In this document: positions 48,144 to 64,000 of the stretch, piece by piece
Numbering within the stretch: the first letter of the stretch is position 1
Layout of the letters: each line of letters starts with the position of its first letter
Origin: Botryllus schlosseri
Taxonomy: Eukaryota
Assembly (NCBI GenBank): GCA_051294905.1
Contig: CM119372.1
Span: 31,188,001-31,252,000 of the forward strand
Direction: 5' to 3'
Length of the DNA stretch: 64,000 bases
Position numbers and translations under genes: made by a program
The notes under the pieces: generated by a model
Seen by the model: only the letters and a program-made list of their open reading frames with translations
Database searches by the model: none
What the model was told of the DNA's origin: nothing

Positions 48144-48995
48144 CTGAAAAACATATACAATACCGCATTAGTTACATATATGTGTATCAAACTATATAAA
48201 TCTTGCGAAGCAAAGCTGTAGGTTGTATGGTTGGTGACACTTATAATCGGGACCAATGCCAGCACATGACATCGGATAACTCCGGACACTATCAATACAT
48301 AAATACTTGATTAGTCAAATGATACAAAAACCAGGGTATTAAGATATCGCACGTCGAATTTATTCCGCTTCGCACTATTCGAGTTTCATTTGGAGGTAGC
48401 CAGTAACGAATTACTTCCACGTTTTCCAGATAATTCAGTAGTTTCACTACGGAGGCTGTACTTAAGGCGTCATCATCATTGGTTTATTAGCAATATTATC
48501 GGTTCAATACACCACAAAAATGCGATACAAAGAAAAGATAGGAAGTTGTCGAAGCGACATGGAGTAGTCTATTGAATCAGATACCCACCTTGGCCTAGGC
48601 AATGTAAAGAGGAGGCATGCACACTCAATGAAAAGTAAAGAAGATAGTATAAAAAGGGCAAGTAGCAAGAAATGGGGTGGCATGTCATGGAAGGCGAGAT
48701 CGATAGGTTAGTCGTGGTCCGGTAATGTTGAGGATGGACTAATTAATATTCACTGAGTTGAGTTTTATGAGTGAAATTATCAAAATACCCGCGTCAAAAT
48801 CTCCTATATCCCGGCAACGAATATGTACTCGAGAATTGAACGTATTTTGGTCATTTTGTGTGTCGCCAACATACACCCTGCCATTCCAAGTATAGATGAG
48901 TAGCCGTCATGTGTCGGGCATTTGTCATAAAAGATGTTCCTATAACCCTCCTATCATTTTCAATCTGCAGGTTATTATAGATGTCAAGATCAGAC

Positions 48996-50396
48996 CTTTA
49001 ACAAGCTCAGAGGATGTTTCCATGTATACCGCGCCAGTAGCGAATCGTCGAACCACTGACCATCGTTCCGCATGAAGACCTTCTTTATTAAAGTCCCGGA
49101 ATCTGCTAATCTCCATCTCAGCTACAAATCTCGCTGCCAGATATTCTTGAATGCTTTGGTGGCAGAAAAAGAATACGAAATCCCCTTGCATCAAACTGCG
49201 GCTGAGCAGATTTTCACCCGGAACCTTTGCCATTAAATCTTTAACGTCATCGGCGGACAGTTCAAAATGTTGTAAATCAGATATCTTGAAGACAACTCTT
49301 CCTTCTTGCATGCCTCGAAAAGACATCTCTTTCAGTTTGTTCACTACCGACGAGATGTCTTCTGATTTTCGTATGTTTTCTACGCCTTCAAGAGCTGCGA
49401 TGATCCTATCGTACAGTTCTGTGATTGTAGCCGGAGGAGGCCTACGTGGATCTTTTCCCATTACAATCGCGGTTAAAATTAGGAAGACCGGTTGGGATAT
49501 TATATGGAGCAATCGTGGCGACATCCTTTCAATTCGTTTCCAAAGGCAGACTCCGTTTTCTCCAAGAAGGGAAGTGAATAGTCCCTGTGCGTCTGGTAGA
49601 GTGAAACCATGCAGCATAATAATATCATGGGGTCTGGCTTTCTGCGGTAGCTCAGAGATCCTGAATTCCCTTGAAGTTATGAAAATTTTAACGTGCCGAA
49701 GGATATTCCGTGCTAAAATATTGTATAGGATTGTCCAGGTGCTTTCTATGTCATGATTTTTGATGGTTCGAATGTCTCTATGGTAAATATTGAACCTTGC
49801 TTGATCGAGCCCGTCAAAAAATATAACCGCATCGGATTGATTTTCAACTAACCATTTAAATGCCTGATTTTCTTCGCAATCAGTTTCGTAAAGACCACCG
49901 AAAAGAAATTTTGATGGCTTGATAAGGTTCTCGTCTTTAACATCCTTCAATTCAACATAAAGTATCATCTTCTTTTCGTTGAACAGTTTATGTATGTTTT
50001 CCCCAGAGGATAAACCCAGAGATTTTTTTACTAGTCTACGTGTAAGTGTCGTTTTACCTGATCCCGCTGACGCGACTATGGCTGTAATACCGACCGTTCC
50101 AGACGGCTGTAATTTTTCTCTCTGCCATATGGACGCCATTACCTCGTCAATTTGGATCGGTTTGTTTTCATTCTCATCCTGGTAGTTGAATCCGACTTCA
50201 TTTACCAGTTGATTTTGTACAGCTACATCTCTTTCATAGCGACCTTTGTAGTAGTGGGCAACATCAACCTTTCGCATTTGCGGGTGAACTACAAAGTCTG
50301 TCTCTTGCAGCCCGTCGAGCTTGAATTCATCAAGAATACTGACCGAAGAGCGTTCGTCAGCACTATCGTTGACACTCTTTATAAGTCTGTCGACGT
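48996..50396 (-). CDS. NACHT-domain NTPase (NLR-like innate immune receptor), large internal exon
   Basis: Walker A ASAGSGKT, Walker B VIFFDGLDQ, sensor FITSRE, winged-helix FCHQSIQEYLAA. The frame is open upstream of the annotated ATG to acceptor TTTTGTTGCAG| (50397); donor AAAG|GTCTGA at 48995. Confidence 0.92.
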
Positions 50397-50896: not shown

Positions 50897-51750
50897 ATGT
50901 CTGGAGAGAAGTATATTAAAGTTCCAACGTTGGACGTGTTACCAGACTCTGCAGATAGTGTGAAGATATTCTCTCATTGGGAGCGGATGTTGAAGAGTTT
51001 AATCGAAGCTATATCTGCTCTTTCAACTGATGTAAACAAGCTCGCTATATTTTCAGGTTATTTATCACCTGAAGTCTCCTCATTTATTGAAGAAATTGAT
51101 GATTACGATGCTGCTATCACCGAGCTGCAGTCCCTTTACAAAAAAAAGAAAAACGAAGTCTACGCCCGACATCTGCTAGCAACTGCAACGCAAGAGGTTG
51201 GAGTTAACGTGTCAGAATTTTCTAGAAAACTGATGGCGTTGTCTAAAGATTGTAACTTCTTGGCCGTAAATGCTCAAAAGCATAAAGAGGAAGCTGTAAG
51301 AGACGCTTTCATCACTGGGCTGAGGTCCCCGGCAATTTGACAGAGATTACTGGAATGCGATGAACTAACTATGCAAAAAGCCTTCCAGACTGCGGACACG
51401 TTAGAAAGAGCCTAATTGTTCGCCAGCTCGTACAATGTCAACCCTCCTTCGTCTGATACCATCGCTTCTGCGGAAATCGCAGCAGTTCGGCAAAGCGATC
51501 CTGAACACGGGACAGATTTTACCGCGGCTGTAGAAAAGCCTGGAGCACCGAGATTACTGCGCAAATGCTTCTTCTGCGGCGGATCTCATGTGGCAGACAA
51601 GCCCGTTTGTCCTGCAAAGGACGTCGAATGCCTGAAATGCGGAAAAAAGGGGCATTTTGCAAAGGTATGTCGATCCCCTCGTTCATATGACATCCGAGCA
51701 ACCGCCAGCATGCTTCTAGCAGGAGTTCCAAATTGTCTCTGGCGTGAGTC
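50897..51750 (+). pseudogene. gag: Gypsy/Ty3 LTR retrotransposon gag, with two in-frame stops, cut by the Polinton insertion
   Basis: NEVYARHLLAT...RDAFITGLRSPAI*QRLLE gag motifs; zinc knuckles CFFCGGSH...CPAKD and CLKCGKKGHFAKVC. Stops at 51338-51340 and 51413-51415. A possible LTR at ~50651-50843 has no clear PBS. Confidence 0.85.
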
Positions 51751-52075
51751 AGTAGTATATACGATCGGTCGCGAACTAACGTTTTTTGCATGGGGTAGTA
51801 TAGGCGGGGTGGTGACGCGCCTGAAAACCGGGGGTGGTGATGCGCCTTTTTAGACCCCCCTCTCGGCGGTGATGCGCCATGTGTTCTTATGGATGCGGTC
51901 GTGATGCGCCATTGTGGCTTATGGATGCGGCGGTGATTCGCCGTGAAAACTCGTGGTCGTGACTCGTCTTTTTTGCTATAGGCTGCGGCGGTGATGCGCC
52001 ATGTATTCTTACGGGATCTGTGGTGACTCGCTATGTGCTCTTATGGGTGCGGTCGTGATTCGCACTTTCAACCAT
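51751..52075 (+). repeat. Polinton left terminus: subterminal array of ~22-32 bp GTGA(T/C)-core repeats (part of the TIR)
   Basis: About ten copies of (G/C)GTGA(T/C)(G/T)CG... e.g. GTGATGCGCCATGTGTTCTTATGGATGCGGTC. Full TIR length cannot be set without the right end. Confidence 0.85.
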
Positions 52076-52548
52076 CTCTCGCGTGGTGTTGAATAGTCAC
52101 CAACAATAACCGCACAAACGGAAACGTGGCTTGCAAGAGGATTAAGTAGTGCGTGCGACCTATATTCCGAATGACCTGCGCGCTGAATTATTTCCCGTCC
52201 AGCTGTGTGCTACTATCGATTATTACACTAGACCAGTCAGTGTGAAATAGTTTGATCGTAAATTATGATATATGATGTCGTAGTTTAGTCGTGTCGAATG
52301 ACCGATCGTGTTCTCTTTCCTCGCTATTGATTGCTAGCTGAATAATACTTTCAGATCGGATTATTCACACCTTCGCTGTTTCGCGCCTACAGAATAGTCT
52401 GCTGTTCACAGTCGCAACTTCATCGCGATAGCGCAATTTTCACACCTCGATCAGTAGAACAACACCGCGCTAACCCAGTTGTCGAAACACATAGGTCATA
52501 CATTTTACGTGAAATGAAATATTGTATTGTGGTATACAAATATGCAAA

Positions 52549-53160
52549 CTATTCTTTCAATTCAACAAGTCTAGTTAACGGATCGATTTTCAAGCTGCCG
52601 ACACAGTTTTTAACACGAGTGAGTTGATATTTCTTCCCGGGTACGAGCGAGGCTTTGTTCCATTGATCCAAAACCACCTCGCCAGTATCATCCTTCAATG
52701 TAAAACTGTATAATTTCAACTCCTTTCCGGCACCAGAATTGACCATCTTCTCCTCTCGAGAAACACAAGTAGCGGCGATCGAGACGTATTCATCTTTATT
52801 TCCGTATACCGATTCACAGGTCAATAATGGGTATTCTTCAGTCGTATGTCTCGATTTTCCATGCAGAGTTACTGACGAAGCCCGACCAAGTAATACAGCG
52901 GGTTTTCCAGTAAATTTATCAATTTGAACCCAACCGGATTTGACCATGAGTTTTTTTCGTTTGGTGAATGCTTTCTCAATGTTCCCGAACAAATCACGAT
53001 TGAAACACGTGAAAGATATCTCTTCGTTATTGCCATCGATGAATATACCTTTGAGATATTGGCTAACGCCACCTCTTTTGGGTGATGAGACGAATTTGAC
53101 GCCGACGTGAAAATTTGAAGTTGCTCCGACTTGCATAGTGTTGACGCTGTTCGATGCCAT
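52549..53160 (-). CDS. Tandem OB-fold, RPA/SSB-like ssDNA-binding protein
   Basis: Two OB-like repeats: FIDGNNEEISFTCFN and FTLKDDTGEVVLDQWN...LVPGKKYQLTRVK (LxDxTGxIxLxxW motif). TATAAATA at 53207-53200 favours the ATG at 53160 over 53196. Confidence 0.75.
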   Translation of the reverse strand: MASNSVNTMQVGATSNFHVGVKFVSSPKRGGVSQYLKGIFIDGNNEEISFTCFNRDLFGNIEKAFTKRKKLMVKSGWVQIDKFTGKPAVLLGRASSVTLHGKSRHTTEEYPLLTCESVYGNKDEYVSIAATCVSREEKMVNSGAGKELKLYSFTLKDDTGEVVLDQWNKASLVPGKKYQLTRVKNCVGSLKIDPLTRLVELKE

Positions 53161-53322
53161 ATCGTTTGATAAAGTGGGAGTCATCAACAAACCCATCGAT
53201 ATTTATAGAATTAGGCACGTGGTATTGAGTGAGTTAACAGTCTTTGTATAATCCTGATGACGCGCGTGAATAGACTTGGATTGAAATAAACTTTACAGGA
53301 GTTCTGTAAGAAAGGATGCCGT

Positions 53323-53676: not shown

Positions 53677-54048
53677 AACGAGTATATGTAACTATCAACT
53701 GAAAAAGTAAACCATGAGAATGACACCACAATGTGTTAAAATGGTGAAATACACCGCTCAGATTTCGAAAAAACAGATGTTGGCGGGTGCGTTTGACATG
53801 TGTGACACAATAAAATCGCCCGTTTCGCTAAACAGGAAATTCACTAAAGCGCAGTGCGCTGTGCGATTTTGAAAAACCAGATATCTGCGGCCGCGTTTTG
53901 ATCTGTGACACACTAAATACGTCCGGTTCTGAAAGTTGGAAACGCGATCGGTTCTGGGGATTACGCAGTGCGTGCGCGACCTATATTTCGAATGATCTGC
54001 GCGCCGAATTATTTTCCATCCAACCGCGTGCTACTATCGAATTAAATC

Positions 54049-54137: not shown

Positions 54138-54843
54138 ATGGCCGAGGCTCAGATAGATAATCTTGATAAATTTGGTTATGAACCAAATGCATTTGAATCG
54201 CAATTTGAAGAGAATGCGGATATCTTTGATGCGATTAATTCTGGTGATCTGATGACGTCTGATTTAAGAGTTGAAGCCACAGAACGCAACTCTACGACAA
54301 CGATCGAAATGCAACCAAACCACGCAGATATAGCGCGTCAGGTGGGGCTGAAGTCTGTGAGTCGACGCAGACGGAGTCATGTTCGCGAGGAAGAAGACAC
54401 ACCACCAGAGACAGGCGACCAATACCAAGAAGTTGTATCCCAGAACTGGTAAGTGATAAAATCATATGTAGTGAATCAGAGTCGGCGCGTGTATAATATC
54501 CGAGTCATCGATCGTGAGATACCGGATGTTTTCCGCGATATCCAAGCGATATTTTTCTCAGAGTCGACTCGTTTCAAAGTGAATTTTGCGTATGGAATCA
54601 TTTTACATAACATCGCGGCTGGGAGATTTCGGTATTTTCATGCGTCGGCGAACATCGATAGCGTATTAGAAGTCCCAGCAGCGATTACATCACTAGCTGA
54701 ATGATGAATTTGTTGAATCTTTAACGTTGGAAACGGCACTAGATGTGTTACAAGACTCTCGACCAGATACAAAATACAGGGCAGTCTGTCTGGCTAATGT
54801 ACAGTTTTACGTATACCCCACTGACGGTTTGTTGATTGGTTGA
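54138..54843 (+). pseudogene. Terminal-protein-like region (N-terminal module of Polinton pPolB) as a separate gene, with a stop at 54450 and a frameshift at ~54702
   Basis: SQNW*VIKSY...YNIR...FKVNFAYGIILHN...FRYFHASAN..., then in +1 frame DEFVESL...SRPDTKYRAVCLANVQFYVYPTDGLLIG*. These motifs are typical of the segment preceding the vOTU domain in Polinton PolBs. Confidence 0.7.
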
Positions 54844-55499
54844 GCTGATATCGAAATACGATGCCGATGTGTCTTTTCATGATCTCAATCATTTTCATAG
54901 CGACCCAAGAAAATAATCCTGTCATTGAATTTTATTGAGATGTACTTGTATATATTGTGTGTGTGGTGTTATTGGGGTTTAATTGTACATTATGTTTGTT
55001 TAATATGATTTTTTTTGTATTGTGTGTTAATGTATCATTTGTTTTCCAGGTGGATAACATTATTTCATATCTCAAGTCGGTTATGTCATTAGATTTATAT
55101 AGTTTACATATAGAGATCACATTGACACAGGGATTAAGGGTTTAATAGGTAAGTTATTCGGTGCGAATACTTTGATTTATGAATATAATTTGTTATTTAT
55201 TTATCCACCAGACAAAACAAGCGTGGGATTAAAGAATTGAAACGGTGAGTTATTACTGTGTAGAACTATTGAGCATGATGTAATGATTTTGTTGTTGAAC
55301 AGACAGAGCAAGCTCAAGTGGGATTCACAAGTCTACTGGTGAGTTATCTGTTATATTACTATGTTAGCGACATAGTTTGACGTGTTACTTGTTTAGTATA
55401 AAGATCCAAGGAAGATACCGAAAAAGAAACCCCATTGTAAGTAACAGTAGTTTAATATTCCCAAGTGTTGAATGTAGCCACGCGGTATCAATTTTACAG

Positions 55500-58400
55500 A
55501 TGACTCGACACCTTTGGAATCATGAAGAACACGCACCGCCAGAGATCGATAACCAAAAGCAACAAATTACATCTCAGATCTGGCAAGCGGTGAAATCGTA
55601 TGTAGTAAACAGTAGCCACGTGCGCAATACTAGCGTCAGCAATCGTAAGCGGTCGGATGTTTTCTAAGATACCCAATCGGTCTATCTGATCAACCCCCAG
55701 TTATTTGTATATCCTACCGATGGTTTGTTGATCGGTTGTGTCGGTATTAAACTCCCGATATGGCTTGCGAGAGCGAGATGTATCATGACATTTACACGCC
55801 GAAAGAATAATACTAAATACAAGGACAATCTGTGTGCTTTTCGCTGTATTGGTCACACGCTAGGTAAAGACACCAAAGCAATGGCCCAACAATTCACTTC
55901 GACATATGGTGTAAATGCAGAATCTGGCGTGACACTTGACATGCTGGATAATATTGAGGATTTGTTTAATGTCGCCATCTTCGTGTATACTAAGACTGAG
56001 GGTAAAGCTGTCGCACTCCGTCGTAGTACGTTTGAAGCGAAACCTGTGTACTTACATTTAGAAAATGCACACTTCTGTCTCATTACTGACATGAGGCGAT
56101 ATATGGAGAGCTATCGATGTGATGTTTGTCAAAGATTTTTTTATGAGCAGCACGAATTGACCAGACACAAATGTACAACAGAGCCTGTTGAAGTGTTTCC
56201 CGGTGGCGTATATACACCTCCTCTGGCCATATTTGAAAAGCTTGATCTAGAAGGGATGTTTGTTCCTCACCAGCTTCGTTATTTCAAATACCGTATCGCG
56301 TTTGATATTGAGAGCATGTTCGAGAAGTGTGATATTCCAGATTCCTCCAAAACTTCGTGGGAGTGCAAACATATTCCCATTTCTGTTAGCATATCTTCTA
56401 ATGTGGAAGGGTTCTTGGAACCGTATGTAATTGTCTCGAACGGTGACCCAAACGACTTGTGTGCGGAAATGGTTGATCATTTTCATGATATTCAAAGTGA
56501 GTCATTTAGGTTGTTACAGATGGAATATCAACACTACTTGGACATGCTCGAAACTAAAATTGCCGAAATGAAAGCACTCGATCCTTCCGAGAAAAAAATA
56601 CCACTTGAACGTTTACAGGAGGAGTTTATGCGATATTTAAAACAAATCCCTGTTTTGTCGTTCAATGGTGGTCGGTATGACTTGAACTGTCTCAAAGAGT
56701 ACTTGATGGGTTTACTCGTTGACGAAAATGTGAGTGTATTGAAACGGGGTAACAACTTCCTCTCTTTGACAACCAACAGACTTAAACTTTTGGACATTGT
56801 AAATTACTTGGCACCCGGGTTCTCGTACGATGCTTATTTGAAAGCCTTCAAATGTAGCGCCGCTAAAGGTCATTTTCCGTATGAGTTTCTGACTAGTTTG
56901 GAAAAGCTGGATTATACGAGTCTACCTAGCCACGATGAGTTTTACAGCTCGCTAAAAGGTCGTAATATATCCACAGCTGAATATGAAAACTGTTTGAAGG
57001 TTTGGAATGATAACAAAATGACCACTTTACGTGATTATCTCAAATGGTACAACGCAATCGATACTCATTACTTCATTGAGGGGTTAGAAAAACAATTTCA
57101 ATCTTTCAAAAGTCAATTCAGTGTGGATATATTCAAAGAAGCTGTCTCCCTACCCGGGGTTGTATCGAGGCATCTTTTCAATAGCATTCCGCGTGATTTC
57201 ACCTTGTTCAATGATAAACACCAAGATCTGGTTTCGCTATTCAGAGACAATTTAGTAGGCGGACCGTCGGTCATTTTCCATCGATATCAAAAACAGGGTG
57301 AAACTCGAATCAAAGAAGTTTTTTATAAGGAAAACGCACAGATTACCCAACATGTAACAGGGCTGGACAGCAATTCGTTATACTTTTTTGCTTTGAGTGA
57401 ACCTAGTCCAACCGGTTTCCCGGTACATTGGCAACCACTCGATGCTGAGTGTACTAAATTCAAACCGGTGAAGACCGCACCGAAATGGGGGGAGACAGCA
57501 GCTCAATGGCTAAACTGGTATTCGTATACCCACAATGTACATGTCCACCATGCTTTTAATGGACCTGAAATCCGCGTAGGAGCTCGTAATTACCCTGCTG
57601 ATGGGTTCTATCGTAATTCAGCTGGTCAAGGGGTAATCTTGTCTTTTCTTGGATGTCATTTCCATGCACATCAGTGCAGATTTGGCTGTGATGATTTGGA
57701 ACGTCGAGAACGGACTAAACGTGTTCATGATTATTACAAAAGCCTCAATTACCAAGTCATATGTAAATGGGAATGCGACTGGCGCACGGAGAAACAGGAA
57801 AATCCTGATATTGTGCGATATCTTAATGGTATTCAACCACAATTGACTCGAGCCAAGTCTGTCACCGCACAAAAATTGATGGAGATGGTAATGACTGGTA
57901 CATTCTTCGGATGTTTATCAGTTGATATTTTTACGCCAAAACATTTACAAAGGAAGTTTGTTGAACTATGTCCTATATTCAAAAATACGATGGTGTCTCG
58001 CGAGCATTTGACAGGTCACATGAAACAGTTCGCTATTGATCGTAAATTACTCCCCAAACCCACGCGCATGTTGGTTGCTTCATACTGGGGCAAGAAAATC
58101 TTGTTGACCTCCGACTTGATCAAGTGGTATGTAGAGCATGGGTTGATTATATCCAAAATTCATGAGGCGGTCGAATTCACAAAAAAGACCTGTTTTGACA
58201 GCTTTGCGAAAAATGTCTCAGACTGTCGACGTGCTGGGGACCGCGACCCCAGCCTAGAGATCATTGCCCTAACGCAAAAATTAGCTGGAAATAGCAGTTA
58301 TGGCCGCGTCTTGATGAACCCACGTAAATTCAAACGAACGTCCTACTGTGATAAAAGCGAATTGGGCACCAATGCGAAGGATCGTTTTTTCGTGAAATGT

Positions 58401-59092
58401 GACGAATTGAACGCTGATCTATTTGAAATAACGAAGCGACCTAAAACGATCAAGTGGGGTAACTGTATTCAAGTGGGATTTTGGGTGTATAACAATGCTA
58501 AGCTCAAGATGTTGTCGTTTTTTTATGACTGCTTGTGTAAATATTTCCGTGACGAGTGCTTCATGCTATTAATGATGGCCACAGACTCCCTCTATCTTTT
58601 GCATTCAGCCTCATTCGACGATATTCTTATCCCTGAGAAAAGAGATGAATTTTATCTTGAATACGAGAACTGGTTTCCACGCTATTTTTGTGATGAGCAC
58701 CGAACTGAGTTTTTGGCTGACCCGGTTTCTTTTGATCGCTCGAGGCAGTGTTGCAAAGATGCGTATGCGTATTACCTTCGTCAACCGGGTTTGATGAAAG
58801 TGGAGTATGAAGGTGGTACATCTTTCTGCGGTCTCCAATCCAAAAATTACTTTTGCGATGGACCAAAGAAAAAATTAGCTTCCAAAGGGCTCCAGAAATC
58901 CAATCAAATTGACTTCGAAAATTTTCTGGGTGTCTTGACATCTAAGGAAGCTACGGGGGGAGTGAACAAGGGGTTTCGGTGCAGAGATGGGGTGTCTATA
59001 CGTACAAACAACAGCGTAAAACATTGTCCTATTTCTACGCCAAACGTCGAGTGCTCGAGGATGGTGTGTCAACCCTACCATTAAATGTGTAA
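55500..59092 (+). pseudogene. polB: Protein-primed family B DNA polymerase (vOTU-like protease, Zn finger, exonuclease, polymerase with VSR-like nuclease insertion); near-intact but with lesions
   Basis: DNLCAF...ENAHF (vOTU Cys/His); ExoI FDIES, ExoII FNGGRYD, ExoIII YNAID; motif A DSNSLY, motif B KLAGNSSYG, motif C MATDS. In-frame TAA at 55665. A frameshift in the G-run at 58989-58992 hides the canonical end YTYKQQRKTLSYFYAKRRVLEDGVSTLPLNV* (stop 59090-59092). Confidence 0.93.
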
Positions 59093-59689
59093 TTGTGTGT
59101 TATTGTATTTTATTTGTATATTCTGTGTGTTTGATTTACTTGTTTATTACTTGTTTATATGTTTGATTTACTTGTGTGTGGTAACGTGTCATTTGTTTTC
59201 CAGATTGATAACGCTATCTAAAGCCTGTCATGTCATTAGATTTATACACTTTACATGTAGAGATGATTACCTTGGAGTGGGAATTACCACAGTTCATGAT
59301 TCTTGACTCTACCAACAACTCGCAACACCGATGATACCCGATTGATGAAAAGCAGACCACCAAAACTTGTGCTCCGTGGTGAGGTCTATAGTTTGTTATA
59401 GAAACACTATATTTTAAAGCGTTATGACCGTATTATGAATCCTCTTATGTGATTTATTATTTTACAGCTTGGGGTCAGCTGCTTGACGACCTGAAGCGTT
59501 CGTAACACTACAACTTCCATTGACGATGAGGAACAGATGAAGATTTCATAACCCGTGGAAAATTGTTAAATCGAACTCTACTGGGATTATATATTCCACT
59601 AGAACAAGATGACTACAACAGTGGATATTCCCAACCTTGTTGATATATAAACACATACACTTTATCGAGTTTTCAATAAACAACAAACA

Positions 59690-60298
59690 ATGGAATTGAT
59701 CCACCCATTCGCGTGTATTGTGAGTGGTCCTTCAAGAAGTGGGAAGACTACTTTTGTTGCAAAGCTGATTAGGCATGCCGCATCCATGATTAAACCAAGT
59801 GTATCCAGGGTCGTATATTGTTACAATAATTATCAGGAGGTTTTCAAGACGATGCATAATGTAGAATTCCACGCTGGTCTAGATATTTTAGAAGAGTTGA
59901 AGGTTTGCTCTGAAGACACCTTGATTATAGTGGATGATTTCATGACTGAGACAGCGAAAATTGCAGACTACTTTACAAGATTTTCTCATCATTCAGCCAA
60001 GACAATTTGTTACGTCACACAGAACCTGTACCACAAGGGTAAAGGGGCACGTGACTTGAGTCTTTCAAGCTCGTATATGGTGATTTTCAAGAATCCGCGC
60101 GACCAACAGCAGATCAGTTTTCTTGGTCGACAAATGTATCCAAACTCTAGATTTTTAACAGAGGCTTATCGTGACGCTGCTAGGCAACCTCATAGTTATT
60201 TATTCCTCGATCTCACGCAAGAAGCGCCTGAAAATCGACGAGTTATGACCAATATATTTCCTGGTGAAACCATGGTGGTTTATAGCCCGATGGTATAA
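59690..60298 (+). CDS. A32/FtsK-like DNA packaging ATPase
   Basis: Walker A GPSRSGKT, Walker B LIIVDD, and TQNLY / FKNPRD / YLFLDL motifs typical of Polinton ATPases. TATATAAA at 59644-59651. Confidence 0.95.
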   Translation: MELIHPFACIVSGPSRSGKTTFVAKLIRHAASMIKPSVSRVVYCYNNYQEVFKTMHNVEFHAGLDILEELKVCSEDTLIIVDDFMTETAKIADYFTRFSHHSAKTICYVTQNLYHKGKGARDLSLSSSYMVIFKNPRDQQQISFLGRQMYPNSRFLTEAYRDAARQPHSYLFLDLTQEAPENRRVMTNIFPGETMVVYSPMV

Positions 60299-60331: not shown

Positions 60332-60679
60332 ATGACCAAGGTACCAGCTCGGACACGGCGGCATATACCCACACTAGAGTTCCTACATAAAAGTAAACCC
60401 GAGATACGCAAGCAAATTATATCGGGGGCCAGCAAAGAATTGATCGAGTGTATATGCGATTGTACAAAGAACATTTTATACGGTAACATCCCTCTTTCAA
60501 AGTATAAAAGAAAGCGACTATCAGCTCATAAATGTAGTTTACGTCGACTTCTCAGGAAAGACATCCCTATTCGACATAAAAAACGTATGGTTAACCAGAA
60601 TGGTGGTATGTTTATGACTCTATTATCAAGCATCCTACCCGTCGTCACTGGCTTACTCGGTAATCTTTTCAAAAAATGA
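60332..60679 (+). CDS. Conserved small basic Polinton protein with a C-terminal amphipathic helix after a GG site (putative core / membrane-active virion protein)
   Basis: K/R-rich body, NILYGNIPL motif, QNGG-MFMTLLSSILPVVTGLLGNLFKK tail; usual position between ATPase and integrase. Confidence 0.8.
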   Translation: MTKVPARTRRHIPTLEFLHKSKPEIRKQIISGASKELIECICDCTKNILYGNIPLSKYKRKRLSAHKCSLRRLLRKDIPIRHKKRMVNQNGGMFMTLLSSILPVVTGLLGNLFKK

Positions 60680-61080
60680 CTTCTTTCAAAAAAATCTTCA
60701 TAACTCCGAACCCGATCAACGAGGTTGAAGCTCAGAAATTGAATTTGGATATCGATAAATGTATGAGCGACATATTACAGATGAACATACCCCAAGAACG
60801 AAAATTAGCCTTATATAACGACGCACTAAATCGTTATCAAACAAAACACGACACATTGAATCAACCGATGAAAATCGATATATCAGAACAAAGGAATCTA
60901 TTTTCGGCTAGTGAGTTGGACGCACTGCGACGCCTGATCAAGGGTGAACCATCAAGGATTCCTAAACCTCACTCACCATCACCGAGTAGCCAACGAAGCA
61001 AAGTAAAGACCCAACATGCCAAGACGAAAAGTGGTCGTACACCCAAGACCCCGAGACGATACGGATGGGAGCCATACTAA
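60676..61080 (+). CDS. Polinton hypothetical protein (helical N-terminus, basic P/S/K-rich tail)
   Basis: ATGA overlap with the upstream gene; LDxxMxDIL...KLALYNDALNRY segment; overlaps the integrase start. Confidence 0.75.
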   Translation: MTSFKKIFITPNPINEVEAQKLNLDIDKCMSDILQMNIPQERKLALYNDALNRYQTKHDTLNQPMKIDISEQRNLFSASELDALRRLIKGEPSRIPKPHSPSPSSQRSKVKTQHAKTKSGRTPKTPRRYGWEPY

Positions 61081-62086
61081 ATATTTCACGCCAGGGCTAC
61101 CTGGTAGTTTCCGCGGCGCATACGTATTCTCTAGAGGGCGGAATAGAACCAAAGTCAAGGAGTTTCTTTCGAGCAAGGACGCGTACACAAAACATTTTCC
61201 CTATCGAAAGAAATTTAAGAGACCTAGGGTGATTACGTCCGGTCTCGGTGTTCAGTATCAAACCGATCTCATGCATATGCAAAATCTTTCAAAAGAAAAC
61301 GATAATTTTAAATATGTGTTGGTGACGATCGATTGTTTCAGTCGATTTTTATATCTGTATCCACTCAAGAACAAAACCTCGCAAGGTATTATTCGCGGAT
61401 TCAAGGAAATATTTAAGGATCGTATACCTCATGTTATTCAAAGTGATCAAGGTTCTGAGTTTACTAATCGTGCGTTTCAGACTTTCTTAAAAGAGAACAA
61501 TGTGCGACATTTTCATACAAATAGTGAACTGAAAGCATCGATATGCGAGCGTGTTATTCGTACTGTGAAGCAAGTGTTATACCGTTATTTCACGCATAAT
61601 AAGACTTTGAATTATGTCAGTGTCCTGTCTGAGATATGCCGGGGGTATAACACTACTTTTCACGTGGCTATAGGGTGTCCTCCAGCGGATGTTAATTATT
61701 CGAATCAAGAACAAATTTTCCATAGGTTATACGGTGACATGACCCCTAAAAAACCCAAACTAACTATCGGCACACCCGTCAGGATTTCGAAATCACGTGG
61801 TAATTTTGTAAAAAGCGCCTTGGCGAGTTGGACCGAAGAAATCTTTTTCGTATCTCAATGTCGTAAAGGTGACCCTCCTACTTATCAATTGAAAGACTAC
61901 CATGGTGAAGTTATAGACGGTCGCTTTCAGCGTGAAGAGTTACAACCAATAACTAAAAATAATAATATTTACAATATCGAAAAAATCCTGTCTACTCGCA
62001 GGAAAGGAAAGAAAACGCAATATCTTGTAAAATGGTTTGGTTATCCGTCTAAATTTAATTCTTGGGTCTCGGATTTGTATAAATAG
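61016..62086 (+). CDS. int: Retroviral-type (rve) DDE integrase with C-terminal chromodomain
   Basis: YQTDL / IQSDQGSEF / ASICER catalytic triad; YNIEKIL...YLVKWFGYPSKFNSWV chromodomain; uninterrupted. Confidence 0.96.
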   Translation: MPRRKVVVHPRPRDDTDGSHTKYFTPGLPGSFRGAYVFSRGRNRTKVKEFLSSKDAYTKHFPYRKKFKRPRVITSGLGVQYQTDLMHMQNLSKENDNFKYVLVTIDCFSRFLYLYPLKNKTSQGIIRGFKEIFKDRIPHVIQSDQGSEFTNRAFQTFLKENNVRHFHTNSELKASICERVIRTVKQVLYRYFTHNKTLNYVSVLSEICRGYNTTFHVAIGCPPADVNYSNQEQIFHRLYGDMTPKKPKLTIGTPVRISKSRGNFVKSALASWTEEIFFVSQCRKGDPPTYQLKDYHGEVIDGRFQREELQPITKNNNIYNIEKILSTRRKGKKTQYLVKWFGYPSKFNSWVSDLYK

Positions 62087-62095
62087 ACACCGAAA

Positions 62096-63172
62096 ATGTT
62101 GTTCAACCTAATTATGGATTCTGATTCCGTCTCATCTCGCATGTGTCAAGTCTCGAACAGTCTGAAAAACCAGATTGTGTTTATTGTACAGATTTGTATG
62201 TTAGTGTGTGTAATCGTGTTTTCATTATATCAAATTTCTGTCGGGGTGGATCGTGAGATATATTTAACGCTACTGTCTTCTTCACTTGGGTATCTATTAC
62301 CGAATCCATCACCAATCGTATATGTTGAAAGAAACAATAAAATGTTGTTGACTCTACCTTCGAATGCGAGTTTGGATAAATTTCCGAATACTAGCACAGA
62401 TTTTCAAACGGAACTTTACAAAGAATTAGAAATGAATCGCCATGAGCTAGGATTATGTGAGCTAACCTTCCCCAATGATTTTCAACCGCGAATTGAAGTG
62501 ACAGCGAAAAGTATCGGTTTTGAATTTGTCGATGCGAATGGATACACCGATCGGTATTATATTCCCGAAGGCTCGTATTACAGCATCGGTGAAATGTTAG
62601 AATCGTACGAGAAATATTACATGGGGGACATTTTCATTTTACAAGGATTCGGAGACTTTAGAATCACATTCAGAAGATTAGTCACGAGTAAAAAAAGATA
62701 CAAGCGGGGTGTACCCATAAATACCGATACCGCAGACTCTAGCGTCAAACACATACCCCGTACCACGCATGATTCACCCGAACCTTACGGATTGATACCA
62801 CTTGGTTCTGTGTTGGATACAATAACATTTAGACGCGTTGTATCTCGTCGTCGCGGAGTGGTAGAATTTATCTTTACACCCGCGATAAAGTTGGAACGGA
62901 TTGATAAGGTTTATGTGTATTGTGATCTGATACAACCAAGACCACACGGTAACAAGCTGCAACAACTTTTACGGGTGGTTACTGTAACCGCTAAACCGAA
63001 TGAAAACCAAATCAACATATTCTCAAAACCATACTTCTTTGCTTTAGCGAGAAACAATTTTAGAACAATACGAATTTATCTACGTGATGCGGCAGGCAAC
63101 CCTATTAAATTTCGAAAAGCACCAGTGACAGTAACCCTACGCTTCCGTCGTAGAGCTGTTGATTCAATATGA
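62096..63172 (+). CDS. Small transmembrane module fused in frame to minor capsid protein (penton) 1; penton Met at 62342
   Basis: Hydrophobic IVFIVQICMLVCVIVFSLYQI...LLSSSLGYLLPNP, then MLLTLPSNAS...ELGLCELTFP...VYVYCDLI...LLRVV...IRIYLRDAAGNPIKF...VTLRFRR (Polinton penton motifs). Confidence 0.85.
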   Translation: MLFNLIMDSDSVSSRMCQVSNSLKNQIVFIVQICMLVCVIVFSLYQISVGVDREIYLTLLSSSLGYLLPNPSPIVYVERNNKMLLTLPSNASLDKFPNTSTDFQTELYKELEMNRHELGLCELTFPNDFQPRIEVTAKSIGFEFVDANGYTDRYYIPEGSYYSIGEMLESYEKYYMGDIFILQGFGDFRITFRRLVTSKKRYKRGVPINTDTADSSVKHIPRTTHDSPEPYGLIPLGSVLDTITFRRVVSRRRGVVEFIFTPAIKLERIDKVYVYCDLIQPRPHGNKLQQLLRVVTVTAKPNENQINIFSKPYFFALARNNFRTIRIYLRDAAGNPIKFRKAPVTVTLRFRRRAVDSI

Positions 63173-63840
63173 GTTACATCACGTTGTCTGGCACCAAAGG
63201 CGAATTCTCGGTGGTGTTACCGAATGAAATTATTTGTAATGAGCTTGCGTTGGTGGATATGAGTTTTGTCAGTGAATCTCTTGATCGAATTATAATCAAT
63301 CGTGATCAAGCACTCTGGGAGCTACATAATGAGAAAGATCGAATAGTAGAAGCGTACCTAACACCACTTGGGAATTATGCAAACAACCTCGAGTTGACGC
63401 GAAGAATATTATCTGAAAGTTTCAAACACTGTTTCACCGAAAGAATCAACGATGAACTTTTCCGAATTCGTTACTCGAAACGTATCACACTCCACCCCAC
63501 GGATATATTCACGAATTATTTCAGTGTAGTTGATCAAGTGTCGACACCAGTATGTAATGTCACGTCGATCAAACCTAAACCAACTCAACCCCACCACAGA
63601 TATCTTTTTGTGTATATGAATGTACTACGACATCATCCGGTGGGTGATTACATGAGTCAATTGCTTTGTGTGATCCAAGTAAATAAAGAGACGTGTATGA
63701 GACAAGAAGTTGTATATGAAAAACCGTTTTATTTCCCAGTGTCGATTAACCACGTCCGCGATATAAAAATCACCATCCGGGACCAATACGGTCAGTTAGT
63801 ACATGATATAGAGACCACATTGACACTCCACGCACGATGA
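63169..63840 (+). CDS. Minor capsid protein (penton) paralogue 2
   Basis: YITL...ELALVDMSF...YLFVYMNV...VGDYMSQLLCVI...YEKPFYFPV...IKITIRDQYGQLV...TLTLHAR; ATGA overlap. Confidence 0.85.
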   Translation: MSYITLSGTKGEFSVVLPNEIICNELALVDMSFVSESLDRIIINRDQALWELHNEKDRIVEAYLTPLGNYANNLELTRRILSESFKHCFTERINDELFRIRYSKRITLHPTDIFTNYFSVVDQVSTPVCNVTSIKPKPTQPHHRYLFVYMNVLRHHPVGDYMSQLLCVIQVNKETCMRQEVVYEKPFYFPVSINHVRDIKITIRDQYGQLVHDIETTLTLHAR

Positions 63841-64000
63841 AAATAGTGACGTTAACCACTTCTATGCTTGGTGTTGATTTTGAACACAGACTACTCACCA
63901 TCAACAACATCCCGACGAGGTATTGTGAATTAGCCCTCATGGAGATCGATTTCTCTTTAACCGAACCGGTGATTGGTCAATATTTGTTTGTGTATTGTGA
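63837..64000 (+). CDS. Minor capsid protein (penton) paralogue 3, partial; absent from the ORF track
   Basis: ATGA overlap; MKIVTLTTSMLGVDFEHRLLTINNIPTRYCELALMEIDFSLTEPVIGQYLFVYC(D), sharing the ELAL..F and YLFVYCD motifs. Confidence 0.8.
   Translation, partial: MKIVTLTTSMLGVDFEHRLLTINNIPTRYCELALMEIDFSLTEPVIGQYLFVYC

Follow-up and report, generated by a model that had tools for sequence, protein, structure and literature searches.

Why would a single mobile element carry three genes for the protein that occupies the corners of its capsid? The question is raised by the end of a 64,000-nt stretch of Botryllus schlosseri DNA (GenBank assembly GCA_051294905.1, contig CM119372.1, forward-strand positions 31,188,001 to 31,252,000; hereafter the window), where an initial annotation, made from the sequence alone, had described at least three tandem, highly diverged penton paralogues. 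Re-examination confirmed three consecutive plus-strand ORFs at the coordinates given there. Penton 1 (ORF1, 276 aa) occupies positions 62342..63172, penton 2 (ORF2, 223 aa) occupies positions 63169..63840, and the window ends inside penton 3 (ORF3, 63837..64000), of which the first 54 aa are visible. Both junctions read ATGA (overlaps 63169–63172 and 63837–63840). The segments between the shared motifs, which had been put at about 145, 110 and 9 aa, measure 146 aa in ORF1 (62471–62908), 112 aa in ORF2 (63268–63603) and 10 aa in ORF3 (a loop at 63954–63983, at the position of the insert; the length was taken from the ORF3 sister protein P0172). ORF1 is the least diverged of the three, and ORF2 is devoid of the N-terminal PSN loop.

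Judged by its predicted genes, which include a polymerase, an integrase and a packaging-type ATPase, the element that carries the trio is a Polinton/adintovirus. Its likely left end is the hexamer AGTAGT at 51751..51756 (plus strand), next to an array of ~32-nt tandem repeats (51806–52063). AGTAGT is the Polinton end motif; the hexamer is also found elsewhere in the window (50250, 52145 and 55446). What the window shows of the element's ends is AGTAGT and the repeat array (51751–52063), the right end lying beyond it. The protein-primed DNA polymerase B gene (55785..59084, plus strand; PF03175, E-value, 5 × 10−8) is broken in this copy: its N-terminal part is fragmented (~54138–55780), and the frame is lost near 59.0 kb, as judged by eye against the related locus L001. 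Further downstream on the same strand are a putative genome-packaging ATPase (59690..60298), a 115-aa basic core-protein-like ORF (60332..60679), a 134-aa ORF of conserved position (60676..61080), and a retroviral-type integrase (rve) with a C-terminal chromodomain (61016..62086; PF00665, E-value, 3 × 10−16; PF00385, E-value, 8 × 10−9). The ATPase agrees with that of L001 in place and motifs, and in Pfam it matched P-loop families only, with no match to a packaging-ATPase-specific model. The two small ORFs have no Pfam match; the first shares its position and C-terminal GG motif with a 113-aa ORF of L001 (by eye), and the second is the positional counterpart of a 127-aa ORF in the same locus. 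An rve integrase with a C-terminal chromodomain is a feature of Polintons/adintoviruses as these are defined by Buck et al. 2024 (PMC11071296). In L001 and another related locus, L077, the gene order is the same; a small ORF comes next, followed by the genes for the major capsid protein and the protease, so the latter two probably lie past the end of the window.

A small hydrophobic ORF (62096..62341, plus strand) precedes ORF1 and is in frame with it here, giving a single 358-aa frame (62096–63172); an indel in this stretch distinguishes other copies of the element. P0155, which represents an unrelated cluster (six members, several of ~361 aa), has a comparable leader, likewise with the motif SLGYLLP, fused to its penton. 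Taken together, the fusion in P0155 and the continuous frame in the window suggest that a membrane-anchored form of the penton may exist in some polintons.

The element is multi-copy: whole or in part, it was found in 20 of the 24 sequencing runs listed (nine studies), and in one run alone 7302 contigs align to 3 kb of it. No RNA run was listed among the 24 as containing it. A sample of about 3% of a single raw RNA run yielded 22 reads on both strands, which are too few to interpret, and a further run provisionally taken as RNA may contain DNA. Among the 20 largest repeat families, the penton block is touched by short matches only. No rearrangement joints were listed over positions 61000–64000 in four runs, the contigs of which show presence, not absence. 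A retrotransposon fragment of gag-like type, with CCHC knuckles (50897–51853), adjoins the likely left end and may have been the target of the Polinton's insertion, and a host NACHT-domain gene (48940–50277, minus strand; PF05729, E-value, 1 × 10−13) is located just outside the element. Inside the likely left end, a 215-aa ORF (52549–53196, minus strand) has no Pfam match and by eye resembles a two-OB-fold single-strand-binding protein. Three pairs of diverged direct repeats (64–88%) were also observed within the element. An AT-rich pair (54929–55117 and 59097–59264), with a splice-acceptor-like TTTTCCAG at its end, flanks the polymerase; a second pair (54784–54851 and 55680–55747) repeats part of the beginning of the polymerase; and a third, of 65 nt (52155–52219 and 53976–54040), flanks the minus-strand ORF.

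Pfam searches gave nothing meaningful for ORF1, ORF2 or ORF3, and sequence searches of solved structures returned only three and four weak matches (best penton match, E-value, 1.7). A profile search of sequence databases retrieved 11,492 proteins at E-values ≤ 0.001, the best 150 of which were listed. From 134 of these 150, with the window's own proteins excluded, a penton profile was built, which scores ORF1 at 137 bits, ORF2 at 60 bits and the ORF3 sister P0172 at 52 bits. These scores lie well beyond what chance would give, and all three proteins belong to the penton family. The 54-aa piece of ORF3 visible in the window falls below score in the same profile. Because ORF3 escapes both Pfam and, as a fragment, the family profile, bare pentons of 130 aa are easily missed. 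P0172 (131 aa) was the sole protein returned by a search for longer ORF3 relatives; it is 94% identical to ORF3 over 54 aa, with differences at three places. The longest contig is 7972 bases for each of the sister proteins P0004 (ORF1), P0024 (ORF2) and P0172, which suggests that the three belong to one sister element.

The fold of these proteins was assessed on predicted structures. The AlphaFold model of ORF2 (117-row alignment) has a mean pLDDT of 74, with values above 90 in most core blocks and below 50 in residues 89–140. All six Foldseek matches of this model at E-values ≤ 0.001 are mavirus penton chains (E-value, 4 × 10−6), and adenovirus-derived chains come next. Comparison of the model with 48,161 chains placed capsid or penton chains of PBCV-1 (two entries, ranks 1 and 4), mavirus, Sputnik, EhV-201 and fowl adenovirus in the top six (Z 8.7–12.4), and the seventh match drops to Z 7.1. 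The alignment covers 120 residues of the PBCV-1 chain (Z 12.4, rmsd 2.7) and 172 residues of the mavirus penton (Z 11.7, rmsd 6.2). The predicted fold of ORF2 is that of the mavirus penton (6G41), Sputnik (3J26, chain N) and the adenovirus penton base, with sequence identities of 7–17% to the pentons of PBCV-1, mavirus, Sputnik and adenovirus. The Atlas model of P0172 has a pTM of 0.77, and its residues 1–131 align at TM 0.82–0.83 to predicted proteins of 237–340 aa, the pattern that a jelly roll minus its insert gives; on this model, ORF3 is a bare jelly roll. The AlphaFold model of ORF1 is poor (pLDDT 42 on 20 near-redundant rows), and the fold comparison is based on ORF2 and P0172. Loss of the single jelly roll in ORF2 and ORF3, which the initial annotation had named as one finding that would speak against its reading, was not seen: the models of ORF2 and P0172 both keep this fold, and the two ORFs do not have the look of decayed remnants.

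Searches with these structures also brought up short or paired proteins elsewhere. Clusters of 120–140-aa look-alikes of ORF3 exist, with 73–87 members. Among the BFVD matches to the ORF2 model, Tetraselmis viridis virus S1, Cafeteria roenbergensis virus and Hokovirus have two penton-like models each, and Drosophila-associated adintovirus 2 has one of 161 aa. These double and short models suggest that annotation may widely overlook additional as well as short pentons.

The inserts had been described as showing no evident similarity to each other. This holds for pairwise comparison of inserts 1 and 2 (best BLASTP E-value, 0.14), but not for comparison with the family. Against a profile of the insert alone, from which the window's proteins had been left out, the first half of insert 1 scores 12.8 bits, a value that none of 500 shuffles reached, and insert 2 scores weakly, at 5.4 bits (1 of 500). 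The common motif in the first half is P-x-G-x-Y followed by a helix. The second halves of the two inserts show no match to one another or to the family. Since the family profile matches both inserts in their first halves, these are, at least there, diverged versions of an ordinary insertion domain. Insert lengths in relatives range from 101 to 272 aa, with a median of ~128 (108 of the 137 full-length top profile matches), a range biased against bare pentons because the selecting profile contains the insert. Foreign swap-in domains of unusual length were accordingly rejected as an explanation, given the ordinary lengths and the family motif in the first halves. The basic KKRYKR-G site reported in insert 1 is present in the window copy (62690–62710); two of its positions are changed in both sister proteins, so it is not a conserved site, and its reading as a conserved site of cleavage or binding was rejected.

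For comparison of penton numbers across related elements, a core-only penton profile was used, which detects P0172 at 57 bits. Of 81 related loci, 79 have one penton, two (L076 and L077, which are one element) have two, and none has three. The 80 metagenome loci used here ranked highest among at least 391, and many of them are near-copies. When only loci with at least 900 bases on both sides were considered, 1 of 41 had two pentons. Viral-contig scans with the queries A1, ATPase, P0172 and ORF2 gave no locus, and query A5 returned L001. In L077 (1258–2726), as in L076, the two tandem pentons are 45% identical, ATGA-joined, and both carry inserts; the second is devoid of the N-terminal PSN loop, like ORF2, and in the tree the pair represents a separate duplication. 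Four predicted chains of 540–581 aa (P0027, P0028, P0031 and P0169) contain two penton domains each, the halves being 24–52% identical; these may be genuine fusions, or tandem pentons that gene calling joined by read-through, and they were left out of the penton counts. An ATGA overlap follows the penton at 13 of the 83 penton ends examined (13 were too near the contig end, and 20 had no following ORF found), so it is an ordinary junction and was dismissed as a special feature. The statement that polintons typically have one minor capsid gene is sound as to frequency, extras being uncommon (1 of 41), but duplicates had already been published.

According to Buck et al. 2024 (PMC11071296), duplicate pentons occur in a few adintoviruses, and the DE loop may have no, one or several inserts. 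In the protein file of that study, Penton2 is named in seven genomes, and in the 4 MB of the file that was examined no Penton3 is named. Two of the seven, botryllus10012 (BK066506) and botryllus11189 (BK066579), are adintoviruses from B. schlosseri RNA-seq data. They share with the window the order PolB, ATPase, two small ORFs, integrase, Penton1 and Penton2, after which their capsid block follows. By eye, their Penton1 shows the unusual FP-x-DF and F-R-x-A-P motifs of ORF1, and their Penton2 has a short N-terminus without the PSN loop, as in ORF2. Unlike the window, the annotated gene lists of these two genomes contain two pentons, both with inserts, without a third, bare one, and no small hydrophobic ORF ahead of Penton1. 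As two Botryllus adintoviruses carry a resembling Penton1–Penton2 pair at the same place, the ORF1/ORF2 pair appears to be old, and as neither lists a third penton, ORF3 seems not to be needed in close relatives. The other two-penton genomes in the file are Adinto18043, Adinto23690, AdintoBK011010, Adoma5526 and Adeno7806, the last of which by eye combines a long Penton2 with a Penton1 that is short and seems to have no insert; insert-less pentons are also found in Adinto14876, 14448 and 7556. The Polinton penton (PX) was defined by Krupovic et al. 2014 (PMC4028283), and the trio belongs to the same family and occupies the same gene slot as the canonical protein (L001, L077).

Nothing on several pentons per polinton was found in the parts examined of PMC11161782, 10.1101/697771, PMC11131425, 10.64898/2026.10.13.758929, PMC9952930, 10.1101/2023.08.22.554363 and 10.1101/2022.07.28.501842. 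On polintons with three pentons, or with minor capsid genes that are paralogues, the literature search yielded Buck et al. 2024 only, with partial coverage of its supplements, where a trio could be recorded. Within this scope, we found no report of a third, bare penton in one element, which would be the new part; duplicate and insert-less pentons are already published. The trio is thus a real, uncommon arrangement of known parts.

How the arrangement arose was examined in a tree of 91 core columns and 48 rows (the three sisters, 42 of 112 other aligned pentons, and three from loci). The three pentons form one clade (support 99/84); their mutual identity in the core is only 30–35%. The end branches are 0.73 for ORF1 and 1.69 and 1.76 for ORF2 and ORF3, with a median of 0.5 in the tree. 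In leave-one-out trees, ORF2 joins ORF1 when ORF3 is removed (100/81), and without ORF2, ORF3 is nearest to ORF1 with no support. It is likely, as far as a tree in which the long branches of ORF2 and ORF3 meet can tell, that the three genes come from an old tandem duplication; this would have taken place inside the lineage, copies 2 and 3 having changed faster. The sisters of ORF1, ORF2 and ORF3 keep 32, 25 and 19, respectively, of the 61 positions conserved in the family, the last figure being depressed by the missing insert and the poorly aligned N-terminus, and single pentons keep at least 42. Part of this motif loss is lineage-wide, because ORF1 too keeps only 32 of 61, and the low retention in ORF2 and ORF3 is as expected of subunits that share work.

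The frames of ORF1–ORF3 are open in the window and in the sister copies. Differences among copies were drawn from four runs aligned over positions 61000–64000; 40 of the 94 differences were listed, 38 of them inside ORFs. Among these 38, the segregating ones (share below 85%, deepest run) comprise 11 silent and three replacing changes (28% silent expected; p = 1 × 10−4), with 10 of the 11 silent ones in the integrase and ORF1. The near-fixed differences, which are likely private to the window copy, comprise nine silent and 15 replacing changes (p = 0.21 versus neutral). ORF2 has eight of the differences listed (seven replacing, one silent), all near-fixed versus the window copy and none segregating, and ORF3 has four (two replacing, two silent). 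None of the six indels among the differences listed falls in ORF2 or in the visible part of ORF3. Open frames at 30–35% identity, the kept fold and the absence of listed indels suggest that ORF2 and ORF3 are probably retained under selection; the codon-level signal comes mostly from the integrase and ORF1.

The question of what three pentons would do in one particle can be approached through viruses with known vertices. In PR772, a tectivirus, the penton consists of three P5 and two bare 126-aa P31 subunits, an arrangement proposed to avoid steric clashes (PMC6750898). The P5–P31 pair of PR772 and PRD1 resembles the trio in that a bare jelly roll of ~126–131 aa stands beside decorated paralogues; it differs in that P5 carries a C-terminal trimeric spike instead of a DE insert and belongs to a bacterial virus. 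In PBCV-1, P1 fills 11 vertices, and P1v1, which is ~10% identical and carries a DE insertion of far greater size, occupies the unique one (PMC9617893). As in the window, the PBCV-1 paralogues differ in the size of the DE insertion and have the fold of the ORF2 model; unlike the situation proposed below, they form separate homo-pentamers, in a giant capsid. Insert-less pentons also occur in PBCV-1 and marseilleviruses (PMC13119691).

The explanation that we favour, with a probability of roughly 0.45, is that an old tandem duplication gave rise to a fixed set of corner subunits, most likely assembled in mixed pentamers, in which ORF3 would serve as a spacer. The proposal is modelled on the PR772 P5/P31 vertex, where a bare jelly roll sits beside a decorated paralogue. 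The three ORFs would lie on one message and be translated through stop–restart coupling at the ATGA overlaps. ORF1 would provide the main penton subunit, ORF2 a second decorated subunit at joint vertices, and the ORF3 product a bare spacer between the two subunits that carry outer domains. All steps from gene to particle in this model are deduced here from the genes. Against it speak the broken polymerase of the window copy itself and the PBCV-1 paralogues, which show that separate homo-pentamers can form instead (PMC9617893). A stricter form, with three-component vertices made of the main penton, the second decorated penton and the bare spacer, in which each corner would expose two different outer domains asymmetrically and insert 1 would evolve fast as the host-contact surface, is unlikely.

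PBCV-1 also provides the precedent for the alternative that survives best, in which the paralogues would form separate homo-pentamers, one filling most vertices and another a special vertex for packaging, entry or fibre attachment. The P1/P1v1 pair (PMC9617893) and the top ranks of the PBCV-1 chains in the structural comparison favour it, and so does the packaging ATPase that the element encodes. We nevertheless consider it unlikely, since the parts of the literature examined describe no unique vertex in polintons, placing three types is more difficult than placing two, and ORF2 and ORF3 are without motifs that are kept by most pentons working alone.

The motif loss and the long branches of ORF2 and ORF3 (1.7–1.8, compared with 0.73 for ORF1 and the median of 0.5) would also be consistent with another job, ORF1 being the only penton and ORF2 and/or ORF3 being kept as cement, fibre anchor, assembly aid or non-structural protein; the clusters of ORF3 look-alikes fit such a role as well. 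The whole jelly roll appears to be kept in both predicted proteins, however, and the genes are coupled in the penton slot, between the integrase and the capsid block, which makes this reading quite improbable.

The tropism or immune-evasion module with alternative receptor-binding inserts, as put forward in the initial annotation, is similarly doubtful. The DE insertion points outward in solved relatives, the second halves of inserts 1 and 2 are unlike each other and the family, and one hint comes from sequence variation, which was compared at the protein level in three copies only. In ORF1, 9 of 10 amino-acid differences from the sister fall in the insert (53% of the length; p = 0.017), five of them in residues 120–138. 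The same comparison showed no clustering in ORF2, where 2 of 7 and 3 of 9 differences fall in the insert, and relaxed constraint on a surface loop fits the ORF1 pattern equally well. The inserts share the family motif in their first halves and are of ordinary length, the basic site is not conserved, and ORF3 has no insert to bind with. Moreover, a set of three that is the same in each copy does not amount to a switch, and antibody pressure does not arise if the host is an invertebrate.

Least probable is that ORF2 and ORF3 are redundant duplicates being lost: seven replacing changes to one silent among those listed for ORF2, long branches, motif loss and the absence of ORF3 from the Botryllus gene lists would fit such decay, but neutral drift to 30% identity would leave stops, whereas the window and two sister copies have open frames, the ORF2 core is predicted with high confidence, an ORF2-like gene persists in the Botryllus elements, and the ORF2 changes are near-fixed versus the window copy, like its other private ones (9 silent to 15 replacing, p = 0.21).

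The proposed shared set of corner subunits bears on a structure for which the vertex make-up has so far been assumed from single-penton relatives, no Polinton particle structure having been found in the literature examined. Its parts have been published separately: duplicate pentons, bare pentons and, for other viruses, vertices that are mixed or specialised. With one long-insert penton, one short-insert penton and one that is bare, a single element provides a natural three-way comparison for the role of the outer domain and for the mixing of paralogues. If true, the three-component vertex would be a re-invention, by a eukaryotic virus, of the tectivirus mixed penton.
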